From a virus (lineage: Duplodnaviria; Caudoviricetes), in IMG/VR virus record IMGVR_UViG_3300001460_000143, positions 1 through 27,813 of that record: a stretch of DNA of 27,813 nt. One strand, written 5' to 3'. The translations under genes were made by a program, and so were the position numbers. This document shows, one piece after another, positions 2,552 to 5,948 of the stretch. Within the stretch, counting starts at the first letter, position 1. Each line of letters begins with the position of its first letter. The notes beneath the pieces were generated by a model. The model saw nothing but the letters and a program-made list of their open reading frames with translations, searched no databases and was not told the DNA's origin.

Positions 2552-2843
2552 TGATAGTTAGTTTAGTATTTTGAAGGTCGATGCCCTCAACTCCATTGAG
2601 ATCCACTATGGTGTACATAACTCCATAATAATCTTGATTACTACAAAACTCATCCAACGTCATGGTTGTTCCCGGTCTATATTTCATCATATGACTAAAA
2701 AAAGCTTTTGAATTACTTTTCAATGGAACTATTTTACCTTTCTTGTCAGGTTTTGCCACAGGAAACGCAATACCATCTACTTTAAGTATTGTCATCATTT
2801 CTGTTTCAGCATCAAAAGACCAACTAATTTTAGCTATGCTCAT
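2544..2843 (-). CDS. Hypothetical protein
   Basis: 99 aa ORF, ATGA-coupled to the upstream RHH gene. Confidence 0.65.
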   Translation of the reverse strand: MSIAKISWSFDAETEMMTILKVDGIAFPVAKPDKKGKIVPLKSNSKAFFSHMMKYRPGTTMTLDEFCSNQDYYGVMYTIVDLNGVEGIDLQNTKLTINV

Positions 2844-2995
2844 GCTACCTTCCTTCTTTTAGATTTTTTACTTTCTTTTTCTACCAATTCAGTAATTTGA
2901 CCTCCTACTGATCGATTGTTTTCTTCTGCTTGTCTTTTAAGTTTTTGATAAGTATCAATTTTTACAGCTACTGATTTAAACTTTTGAGTGTTCAT
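2840..2995 (-). CDS. Ribbon-helix-helix (Arc/CopG-like) DNA-binding protein, 51 aa, not in ORF track
   Basis: My translation: MNTQKFKSVAVKIDTYQKLKRQAEENNRSVGGQITELVEKESKKSKRRKVA*. Alternating beta strand KSVAV, helix, (N)RS turn, helix; ATGA overlaps at both ends. Confidence 0.8.
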   Translation of the reverse strand: MNTQKFKSVAVKIDTYQKLKRQAEENNRSVGGQITELVEKESKKSKRRKVA

Positions 2996-3294
2996 GCTTC
3001 TTTCCTTTCCAATGAAGATACTGTTTCATCATTATCTAAAAGCTCTGTGTCTCCTAGATCTAGTTTTAATTGATTTGTTTCGTGAGCCGCGACTGGTGTA
3101 AATTTACGCCCTGAATTCTCAGCAAGATCCTGCCATCTCTTGGCACTTCTCTCGTAAAAATCAGTCATAAAAATATCACCTAAGTTTCGACATTCACGTG
3201 CTCTTTCGTGATTAGTTTTAGCTCTTGTTAAACGAAGTCCTAAACGAAACCCCTCTTTAAATGTAGCCTCAAACTCTGGTTTAAGTGTTGTCAT
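2992..3294 (-). CDS. Hypothetical protein, first gene after the structured leader
   Basis: 100 aa, GAAAGGA Shine-Dalgarno upstream. Confidence 0.7.
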   Translation of the reverse strand: MTTLKPEFEATFKEGFRLGLRLTRAKTNHERARECRNLGDIFMTDFYERSAKRWQDLAENSGRKFTPVAAHETNQLKLDLGDTELLDNDETVSSLERKEA

Positions 3295-3318
3295 GTTATC
3301 CTTTCTTAAATATCCAGT

Positions 3319-3474
3319 TAAGGCGTGGGACTAGTTTCTCACCCACAAGCTTTCGACTACAGATGAACATTTCATACATGTCTACTCACAACCACCCTTG
3401 ATTACCTCATGCATTTGCACATACTTCATCTCAAGTGTACCTTACCCCTCTGTTACAGAGTTGTTCAGTCAGCC
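3319..3474 (-). ncRNA. Structured RNA, manA-motif-like (candidate)
   Basis: Hand folding: closing stem GGCU-GACUG / UAGUC-GAA-AGCU; hairpins CUCUG/CAGAG, CUUGA/UCAAG enclosing GUGC/GCAU, GACAU/AUGUU, GUGGG/CCCAC; pseudoknot UAAGGU/GCCUUA. GACUGAA and CUGUAGU resemble my recollection of manA RNA; not checked against Rfam. Confidence 0.55.
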
Positions 3475-3502
3475 GATAAAACTAATTAGATTTTATCACC
3501 AG

Positions 3503-3541
3503 ATATGTGGGATAATATATATAAATATGTGGGACTGTCAA
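3503..3541 (-). promoter_or_regulatory. Sigma70 promoter with two operator-like direct repeats
   Basis: TTGACA (3541-3536) with TATATT at 16 nt or TATTAT at 18 nt spacing; exact 10-bp repeat ATATGTGGGA at 3503-3512 and 3525-3534. Confidence 0.75.
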
Positions 3542-3802: not shown

Positions 3803-5698
3803 CTATCCACCTGCTTCACCCCAGTTATCTCCTAGCTCTACATCTACTTTACTAGGAACTAAAAGTTCCACACAGGATTCCATTATCTCTTTTATTTTTT
3901 CTGCATCCTTACCACACTTACCAACACTAAAATCTAATTCATCGTGTACTTGTATATGTGCTAAGTAACCTTCTTTGTGTAGCTCTACCATAGCTTTCTT
4001 TGTTTGATCAGCTGCTGATCCTTGTATCAATCTGTTTAGTGCTTTGTATGTCCAAGCTCTTTTAATCATATGCTCTCCATACTCTCTTTGTGCTTCTGTT
4101 AATGGTAATGCTTTTGATCCCCATTCGTTTGTTGGTTCCCATAAATCAAATCTACATCTTCTACCAAGAAGAGTTCTAAGAAATCCTTTCTTACCTGCAG
4201 ACGCCATTGTTCTATTCATTAATTGTTTTACAAAAGGAACGCGTTCGTGATACGTAGCCAAAAGATCAGATGCGTCTTCTAAATTTAATCCTAACTGAGA
4301 CATCAACTTTCCTTTGCCCATACCATAAAATAATCCTAAATTAATTGTCTTGGCTTGTTTACGATCAATGCCCGCCATGTCACTAACAAGTGTATGAAAA
4401 TCTGTTCCGGGTTCCGTGGAGTATGCTTCAGCAAAATCTGTAGCTCCTGGCAATCCTCCTGTATTACTTCCTGTTAATGCTGCGTAATGAACAACAAGTC
4501 TTGGTTCTTGTTGAGAATAATCAAAGATACCCCACTCGTGTCCTTCTTCAGGAATAAACAAAGACCTTATCATAGGGCCTAGTATAGCGTTTCTAGCTGG
4601 TATCTGCTGAAGGTTAGGATTACTATAGCTAAATCTTCCTGTCACAGTTCCCCCTTGATCAGATCTCATTTGATGTATCTCTGCATGAATACGTCCGTCA
4701 ATAGAGTGTTTTAAAATTGTATCTATAAACGTAGTTCTTGCTTTATTTATTTCTCTCGCTTCCACCACCATCTTCGCAAGAGGACTATCATGACTTGACA
4801 AAAAGTTTTTATCGAACTTTGGTTGTCCTGTTGGAGTACGCTCATAAGGAATTTGTAGTGCATCAAATGCTTTAGATACGCTAGACGCAGCCCAGACTTC
4901 CACATTATGACCTGAGAGTTTTTTGATTGAAGCCAAGATTTTATTTTCTTGTTTTTGTAAATCATTCTTTACCCTTTCTGCTTTATCTACATCTACTCTT
5001 ACACCCTTCATTTTCATATCAAAAAGTACAGGGAATAATTCTGTTTCTAGCTCAAATATATTGAAGAGCTGTTGTTTTACAATTTCTGTTTTTAAATAAT
5101 GCCACAAACGAAGTGTAACGGCAGCATCTTGTTCTGCGTATTGTCCGACATGACTGGCGGGGAGTTTCCACATTTCGGACTTGGCGTCTAGTCCCCATGC
5201 TTTTGCCGCTTCATAGAGTTGGGTTTCCGCTTTTGACTCTTGTAGATAATCTTTTGCTAATGAGTTTAGATCAAAACGAAACCTGTTCTCATCCACTAAT
5301 GGCGCGGCAATTAAAGTGTCAATTATTTTACCTGCGATGTCAATGTCTAAAGTTTTTAACCAACCGACATCATAAAAGGCATTATGAAAAATATAATTTT
5401 TATCCACGTAAGAACATTGTTTGCGTAACCATTTGATAACAACTTTCTTATCCATATTGGGCGGTGTTTCGTGAGCGATGGGGTAGTAGCCTTGCCATCC
5501 GTCTACTGCAACAGCGATACCTACTACTTCTCCTTCACGTCTAACATAACCTGGTCCTCTATCTTTGATGCCAGGATCTCTTGTTTCTAAATCTATTGCT
5601 ATTTCATCGTAACCCGATAAGTCTGGAAAGTGATCAGGCATAACCCATTCACTAGGCATGCGATGAACTTTAGGAAACCAGTTACTTTGTTCTTTCAC
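3803..5698 (-). CDS. polA: DNA polymerase family A with 3'-5' exonuclease (Leu762 type)
   Basis: ExoI IAIDLET, ExoII HNAFYD, ExoIII YAEQD; TGRFS..PNLQQIP; motif A DYSQQEPR; motif B KTINLGLFYGMG; motif C VHDE. Probable GTG start at 5698 after GGAG (ORF track extends to 5713). Confidence 0.97.
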   Translation of the reverse strand: MKEQSNWFPKVHRMPSEWVMPDHFPDLSGYDEIAIDLETRDPGIKDRGPGYVRREGEVVGIAVAVDGWQGYYPIAHETPPNMDKKVVIKWLRKQCSYVDKNYIFHNAFYDVGWLKTLDIDIAGKIIDTLIAAPLVDENRFRFDLNSLAKDYLQESKAETQLYEAAKAWGLDAKSEMWKLPASHVGQYAEQDAAVTLRLWHYLKTEIVKQQLFNIFELETELFPVLFDMKMKGVRVDVDKAERVKNDLQKQENKILASIKKLSGHNVEVWAASSVSKAFDALQIPYERTPTGQPKFDKNFLSSHDSPLAKMVVEAREINKARTTFIDTILKHSIDGRIHAEIHQMRSDQGGTVTGRFSYSNPNLQQIPARNAILGPMIRSLFIPEEGHEWGIFDYSQQEPRLVVHYAALTGSNTGGLPGATDFAEAYSTEPGTDFHTLVSDMAGIDRKQAKTINLGLFYGMGKGKLMSQLGLNLEDASDLLATYHERVPFVKQLMNRTMASAGKKGFLRTLLGRRCRFDLWEPTNEWGSKALPLTEAQREYGEHMIKRAWTYKALNRLIQGSAADQTKKAMVELHKEGYLAHIQVHDELDFSVGKCGKDAEKIKEIMESCVELLVPSKVDVELGDNWGEAGG

Positions 5699-5948
5699 TA
5701 ATTTCTCCTGCAATGGCTAAGTAGGCGGCAGCATCTGTGTAGTTATCTTGTTTTTGTTTGTGCATAGACCTAGCTACCTTTACCAAGGCCATGCACACTG
5801 CCACGTCATGTGCTGTTATAGTTTTACGGAGGAAAGCGGACCACAACGCGGCAATGTTCTCATGTGTTTCTAATATGTCACCGTAATCTTTGTTACGATC
5901 ATTACTTGTAAGCCTAATGGCTTCTTCTAAAAAATCTTTTGTTAACAA
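5682..5948 (-). CDS. DUF6378-like all-helical phage protein
   Basis: R..DYGD...NIAALWS.FL...DVA.CMAL.K.AR...DNY.D.A.Y pattern, typical neighbour of phage polA. Confidence 0.75.
   Translation of the reverse strand: MLTKDFLEEAIRLTSNDRNKDYGDILETHENIAALWSAFLRKTITAHDVAVCMALVKVARSMHKQKQDNYTDAAAYLAIAGEISERTK

Follow-up and report, generated by a model that had tools for sequence, protein, structure and literature searches.

What is the structured RNA in the leader of a small operon of a marine phage, and does it govern the genes behind it? We analysed a linear 27.8-kb virus record (45% complete) over its whole length of 27,813 nucleotides, referred to here as the window. The initial annotation had described a pseudoknotted RNA on the minus strand, either a divergent relative of manA or a new motif, and had assigned to it the control of a set of small downstream genes.

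Genomic setting of the leader

The window is placed near HTVC023P-type phages. Its DNA polymerase A has relatives in 023Pt_psg01, DSL-LC04, HTVC023P, and HTVC027P, two of which have Pelagibacter as host, and the neighbouring genes encode a primase, a UvrD helicase, and Pam3 gp32–34-like proteins. The promoter at 3541 stands as first described, and so does the leader, which extends for approximately 210 nt up to the ATG at 3294. Promoter-like sites in the region number seven against 8.5 expected, which is not above chance; the promoter at 3541 is credible because relatives have it in the same placement. From the promoter spacing, transcription is predicted to start near 3506. Two 10-nt repeats cover the promoter spacer and the start, and possibly form an operator. 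They are also candidate binding sites for the Arc-like protein encoded second in the operon, and CCCA words recur in promoters of relatives. The ribbon-helix-helix regulator named in the initial annotation is this protein, whereas the first gene has no family match. Elsewhere in the window, a second sigma-70-like promoter lies at 1092 on the minus strand, after the small terminase gene and ahead of a run of small genes of unknown function.

Table 1. Positions of the RNA elements and neighbouring features in the window
Feature	Position	Strand	Remarks
Whole manA-type RNA unit, ~197 nt	3310..3506	-	Rfam manA match, R1 model, empty-site boundary
P0, outer stem closing the unit	3506-3498 with 3318-3310	-	Minimum free energy fold
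P1 hairpin	3475..3497	-	4/8 pairs compensatory
L1 (P1 loop), 8-nt palindrome CUAAUUAG	3489-3482	-	Predicted self-kissing loop
P2, long-range helix	3474-3472 with 3324-3322	-	75/75 cells paired; 3/3 pairs compensatory
Conserved manA core: UGACUGAACAA, P3a, P3b, UAAGGU	3439..3471	-	
P3a	3469-3467 with 3441-3439	-	
P3b (CUCU/GGGG register)	3460-3457 with 3448-3445	-	
L3 contact with P8 arm	3453-3449 with 3363-3359	-	124/125 cells paired; 4/5 pairs compensatory
P4 (CACU/GGUG register)	3437-3434 with 3396-3393	-	Encloses P6 only; inner register tentative
P6, single inner hairpin within P4	3421-3417 with 3412-3408	-	P5 and P7 absent
P8 arm, irregular	3355..3392	-	Upper stem ~3384-3380 with 3368-3364; variable loop; 84% paired
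P9 hairpin (GUGGG/CCCAC)	3346-3342 with 3329-3325	-	125/125 cells paired; 2 pairs compensatory
Sigma-70-like promoter	3512..3541	-	-35 TTGACA 3541-3536; -10 TATTAT 3517-3512; 11/12 matches
Two identical 10-nt direct repeats	3503-3512, 3525-3534		22 nt apart; cover promoter spacer and start
RBS (~3304-3299) and first downstream gene (100 aa, ATG 3294)	2992..3304	-	
Arc-like (ribbon-helix-helix) repressor gene, second in operon	2840..2995	-	phrog_3180, E 1.8e-4
DNA polymerase A	3803..5713	-	Anchor for finding relatives; 53-57% identity to four phages

Fold of the RNA and its kinship with manA

Homologues were gathered by pattern scans, gene-anchored searches, and blastn, and comprise three sets: close homologues, approximately 88–100% identical, together with four more divergent sequences; a sister subtype, reached via the polymerase and not via RNA patterns; and about a dozen distant subtypes, the cyanophage manAs included. 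Because one viral scan covered 27 of 64 parts and the polymerase search the best 80 of 554 relatives, the counts given here are no census. A pattern scan of metagenomes returned 38 loci, five of them close homologues and the others unrelated, and relatives of a 61-aa open reading frame were accompanied by the core in one of nine loci examined, the near-identical one. A pattern scan of GTDB (18 of 64 parts) gave 120 loci, of which the three that passed the hairpin filter resemble chance matches in coding sequence and were set aside.

Helices are numbered in the order of the Rfam model and after the labels, as we interpret them, of a recent preprint (10.64898/2026.07.01.735769). Every helix named in the initial annotation can be drawn in the window sequence, but most find no support among homologues. 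In 25 sequences spanning both subtypes, the closing stem first proposed (3474-3466 with 3359-3348) is paired in 157 of 225 cells and the proposed pseudoknot (3444-3439 with 3324-3319) in 85 of 150, or 64.5% for both, whereas 99.0% of the revised core is paired and 15 of its 24 pairs are compensatory. The register CUCUG/CAGAG is 72% paired against 100% for CUCU/GGGG, CUUGA/UCAAG 89% against 100% for CACU/GGUG, and the hairpin GACAU/AUGUU 65%; the 3' hairpin GUGGG/CCCAC is retained as P9. The 18 close homologues show the same contrast (83.9% paired for the first structure versus 97.5%, with eight compensatory pairs, for the revised one). An interim version of the revised fold, with registers CUCU/AGAG and CUUGA/UCAAG and a helix 3396-3394/3350-3348, was dropped, as seven later sequences broke all three elements. 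K-turn and box C/D interpretations of the P4–P6 loop were weighed by eye and set aside.

The revised core scores above all 500 shuffles (0/500) and all slid controls. Since these shuffles ignore kinship and the pairs first proposed also exceed them on some measures, it is the contrast in pairing that carries the argument. The leader is no more stable than its shuffles (z -0.17, with 85 of 200 shuffles equally good), an outcome that the initial annotation had named as counting against its proposal, and the case for a structured RNA on this strand therefore rests on covariation. The RNA covers approximately 197 nt (3506-3310) rather than the 156 nt (3319-3474) originally assigned, an extent that missed P0, P1, P2, P6, and the L3 contact. 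P0 forms a duplex of 5–9 bp with differing letters in 11 of 11 homologues and is not evident in the sister subtype. In the P8 arm alternative registers can be drawn, and its lower stem is tentative.

The relationship to manA is seen from both directions. The Rfam manA model (RF01745) matches positions 3493-3315 of the minus strand over model positions 1–192, with 33.5 bits and an E value of 4.3e-7 (6.7e-9 in a second search). This falls short of the gathering cut-off of 55.2 bits; at gathering scores Rfam returns no match in the window. Those close homologues that the model matches score 29–41 bits. Conversely, R1, a model derived from 18 close homologues that extends over 3506-3306 in the window, recognises nine manA loci that lie above the cut-off (L039, L329, L289, L246, L214, L217, and L450–L452; E 2e-9 to 4e-3), misses nine manA-like loci (L453–L457, L211, L234, L248, and L275), and matches none of nine false loci found by pattern only. 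The end-to-end Rfam match and the recognition of manA loci by R1 together make the homology solid: as judged by sequence comparison, the window RNA shares ancestry with manA while scoring below strict membership. The first of the two original proposals, a divergent manA relative, is thereby borne out, and a new motif loses its support.

As in manA (RF01745; PMC2864571), P1, P2, the core UGACUGAAYAA...UAAGGU with P3, P4, P8, and P9 follow one another in equal order, and both RNAs originate from marine phages. In contrast, the window RNA has a P2 of only three base pairs, an additional outer stem (P0), and neither P5 nor P7, hence no pairing of L5 (GGUGGU) with L7 (ACCA); the lack of this cyanophage-type inner core had been correctly noted at the outset. 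The L8–L9 pairing reaches at least four pairs in only two of 18 sequences. In the portion of the published alignment available, some rows also lack the L5–L7 pairing, which is thus common but not universal in manA, and some also have a single inner hairpin and UAGCU loops (PMC2864571). The carriers differ as well, being HTVC023P-like here and T4-like cyanophages in the published cases, and no mannose or other sugar, nucleotide, ibpA, or photosynthesis gene stands behind the window RNA. We file the RNA as a manA variant and not as a canonical member because it is below the cut-off and without two family contacts. For the same reason of score, routine annotation misses this subtype, although relatives of a widespread marine phage group commonly carry it.

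Three diagnostic words retrieved no row of this subtype from the available part of the published manA alignment, where gap characters can mask matches (PMC2864571). A blastn search against cultured phages gave two chance matches only. RF01745 was found in none of 023Pt_psg01, DSL-LC04, HTVC023P, and HTVC027P, in a search whose controls gave no match either. A term search of an HTVC023P-type genomics paper returned no report of manA, and in the literature covered, most subscription journals lying outside its scope, we found no report of manA in HTVC023P-type phages, nor any of a self-kissing L1 or of slots that are empty or swapped. ROOL and GOLLD are likewise phage RNAs of unknown function and often lie near tRNA islands (10.1101/2024.12.08.627333), whereas a tRNA search of the window found none. 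ROOL, GOLLD, and OLE moreover span several hundred nucleotides of unrelated sequence, compared with approximately 197 nt here, and their Rfam models do not match the window RNA.

Occupants of the promoter slot

Among the best 80 of 554 polymerase relatives, 56 have an R1 match, 52 of them full-length. Of the 24 without a match, 16 have less than 800 nt of downstream DNA; the remaining eight include two empty slots and two slots that hold another element. In the empty slots (L572, whose polymerase segment is 97% identical, and L634) the same promoter is joined directly to the same gene family, the homologues of the 100-aa gene being recognised with E values of 8e-41 and 7e-29. In L616 (~1085-1265) and L621 (~2185-2365) the slot is occupied by a different element of approximately 180 nt without an Rfam match. 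The first gene after the 52 full-length RNAs belongs to the window's family in 36 cases and to others in 15, and in L639 a second element comes first. This stem-closed element (~2697-2765) follows AAGTTT and precedes the usual first gene.

These data bear directly on whether the RNA is a cis-acting switch, a riboswitch or a protein-sensing leader, on translation of the first gene. Such a switch would suit an RNA that lies wholly between promoter and start codon, has a gene within 65 nt in 51 of 52 relatives, 36 of them from one family, and carries many invariant unpaired bases. In the ranking of Weinberg 2010, manA counts as cis-regulatory and as a probable riboswitch (PMC2864571), and from that time on it has figured among the orphan riboswitch candidates. 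The CCUU that follows P2 could pair with AAGG of the RBS when the core is unfolded, and by eye this can be drawn in four contexts. However, arrays retain CCUU even where no gene follows, the sister subtype does not retain it, this 4-bp option is not conserved, and no terminator is predicted between RNA and gene. The RBS is partly open in the ensemble. In L572 and L634 the same promoter and gene occur without the RNA, and in L621 they occur with another element. RNAs that are nearly identical stand before five first genes with no relation to one another, and in ten of 14 loci, which all belong to one phage group, a fresh promoter separates RNA and gene. No single pathway or class of genes is regularly associated with the RNA, as it would be with a riboswitch, and relatives sit among tRNAs. 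Control of the downstream genes, as originally asserted, is therefore not supported, and we regard a switch as unlikely.

Because close relatives keep, lack, or replace the element, a stand-alone RNA is likelier than a metabolite-sensing switch. The reading that we favour, with moderate confidence, is that of a compact manA variant in an optional slot between promoter and gene: a structural RNA that stands free and, by prediction, pairs with copies of itself, rather than a riboswitch. Against this reading, 36 of 51 first genes at the slot come from one family, a dominance that also fits cis-regulation. That a single promoter slot has filled, empty, and swapped alleles in nature helps directly in choosing between a switch and a stand-alone RNA.

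The element also occurs in arrays. In the phage group with the fresh promoter between RNA and gene (L537–L566) the spacer between ssb and a gene of 73 aa is complete in 23 of 30 loci and has 19 versions, which are strings of stem-closed cassettes; 13 of the 19 include a manA-like cassette. By eye these arrays are hypervariable, with about ten kinds of cassette (e.g. L539, L550, L553, L555, and L562), and the kinds other than the manA-like one have no Rfam match at E ≤1 in the 12 loci scanned. The word RAGTTT, mostly at cassette starts, is present 48 times in the spacers against a shuffle mean of 8.7 (maximum 19) and never on the other strand, these counts coming from versions that are related. 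It agrees with the consensus RN↓WUU for RNase E in Salmonella (PMC5222698), and could be an RNase E-type site or, equally, a recombination repeat. In the same group a last cassette of approximately 60–70 nt recurs directly before the downstream promoter; as drawn by eye, the loop of a CCUGGAA/UUCCAGG hairpin is a potential partner for its 5' end, in a possible pseudoknot. Distant relatives adjoin tRNAs in ten loci (L039, L094, L211, L248, L275, L318, L327, L450, L475, and L488), and the manA of P-TIM68 is followed by a convergent gene. In L318 (~441-512) a tRNA lies immediately against the manA core, and a P1 hairpin is not apparent.

A passenger element that spreads among phages by recombination at short repeats, with little effect on its carrier, would account for the occurrence of RNAs more than 90% identical in unrelated gene contexts, for exact presence and absence, and for RAGTTT repeated at cassette starts. 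We consider it very improbable, as compensatory change keeps the structure across subtypes, the RNA is kept in 52 of the best 80 of 554 relatives, and no mobility gene is recognised beside it in the window.

The position of the fold raises another alternative, in which a closed structure at the transcript start would constitutively shield the downstream message or tRNA from host ribonucleases. In the window, in L018, and in cyanophage manAs the fold starts approximately 6 nt after the -10 box, and such a role would not depend on which gene lies downstream. Parts of the region occur in two metatranscriptome runs, in contigs that show neither strand nor ends; the runs were covered at shares of 0.17 and 0.05, with absence from uncovered parts being uninformative. 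In the first, one identical contig of 280 nt covers 3058-3321, essentially the gene. In the second, up to four shallow contigs of relatives lie over the RNA, one of which runs from its 3' end into an L576-type RBS and so joins RNA and gene, which would count for a stabiliser and against a free-standing RNA. A plain hairpin would, however, suffice for protection, and the invariant core, the two loop contacts described below, and positions within arrays before a fresh promoter are left unexplained. We judge this role to be improbable.

Loop contacts and a proposed assembly

Of 91 pairings among 13 unpaired regions, which were defined after the ideas on L1 and L3 had arisen, only L3 with 3363-3359 and L1 with itself reach at least four Watson–Crick pairs in 18 of 18 sequences. 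In a held-out set, the L3 contact forms five of five pairs in 45 of 45 unique RNAs through six letter combinations, such as UCCAG/CUGGA in place of ACAAG/CUUGU. Across the family (44 of 48 loci parsed), 40 distinct cognate pairs score 5.0 versus 3.9 when permuted, and none of 20,000 permutations scores as high. The contact is weak in L012, L283, and L324. It may be either intramolecular or between molecules, and probably equals the L3–L8' kiss of manA_pho34_A767. The published consensus marks neither this contact nor that of L1, its two pseudoknots being L5–L7 and L8–L9 by column position (PMC2864571). A covariation study lists manA among the families with extra pairs.

Most of the family has a self-complementary L1. 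The loop is GACG in 15 of 44 loci. Among the 18 distinct loops of other sequence, 12 contain a palindrome of at least 4 nt, compared with 3.9 expected from random letters and 6.5 from shuffled loops (p 0.003), and seven contain one of at least 6 nt, compared with 0.56 and 1.4 (p 0.0005); automatic mis-calls were scored as misses. Control loops show no excess of palindromes: four of 25 L3 loops have one, as do 18 of 107 loops of other kinds. The idea arose post hoc and the sequences tested are related. In the held-out set L1 is self-complementary in 44 of 45 RNAs, though with only three loop words, and a further held-out scan yielded ten new upstream sequences that passed the filter, all palindromic, which add little because they contain no new loop word. 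Thirty-six rows of the published alignment, inspected by eye, comprise 19 with GACG (two shifted by truncation), ten with a palindrome, and seven with neither (PMC2864571). Five manA-like RNAs (L009, L012, L027, L055, and L474) are without a self-complementary L1 or without P1. Switching between palindromes is a mark of kisses between chains in OLE and GOLLD (10.1101/2024.12.08.627333), and GACG loops are known to kiss (PMC5874298).

A preprint reports that manA RNAs form 8-, 10-, and 60-mers in vitro, one of them through L3–L8', including an icosahedral cage made of RNA only (10.64898/2026.07.01.735769). The window RNA differs in having neither L5–L7', which is used in both solved pentamer types, nor L8–L9'; the main text names no L1 contact, which the supplements may show. 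A natural variant that has two other conserved contacts in place of two cage-forming kisses is a sharp test of the rules of assembly.

We propose the following course for the free-standing RNA. Host RNA polymerase would start near 3506, which would put the 5' end of the transcript at the very base that begins the fold; in arrays, this same end would be set by an RNase E-type site (RAGUUU). The closed fold would persist as a stable RNA that is probably cut out of the operon message, and its L1 would pair with the L1 of a second copy in a two-fold contact. Pairing of L3 with the P8 arm would yield a dimer if internal and closed rings and cages, as reported for another manA, if between molecules. 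The window variant may stop at the dimer or monomer because the kisses of the 60-mer pentamers, L5–L7' and L8–L9', are absent. The assembly could serve as accessory cargo in conflict with the host, with its invariant unpaired bases capturing an RNA-binding protein or nuclease of the host or acting as a decoy for one. This last step is the least certain and, taken on its own, only tentatively put forward.

The prohead RNA of phage phi29 forms a ring. A comparable virion or packaging RNA would fit the pentamers built by manA in vitro (10.64898/2026.07.01.735769), but the element is optional among close relatives and is present in unrelated phage groups, and we think such a role highly improbable. 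Returning to a free-standing RNA, a wider and rather doubtful generalisation is that manA RNAs are not riboswitches but exchangeable phage cargo with a modular code for self-assembly, consisting of two-fold L1 contacts and head-to-tail L3–P8 contacts; the variant described here would then build closed RNA-only particles in infected cells, and such RNAs would be shuffled among promoter slots, tRNA operons, and RNA arrays released by RNase E.

One further palindrome, AAGCUU at positions 3347-3352, lies between the P8 arm and P9 and is found in 13 of the 18 close homologues.
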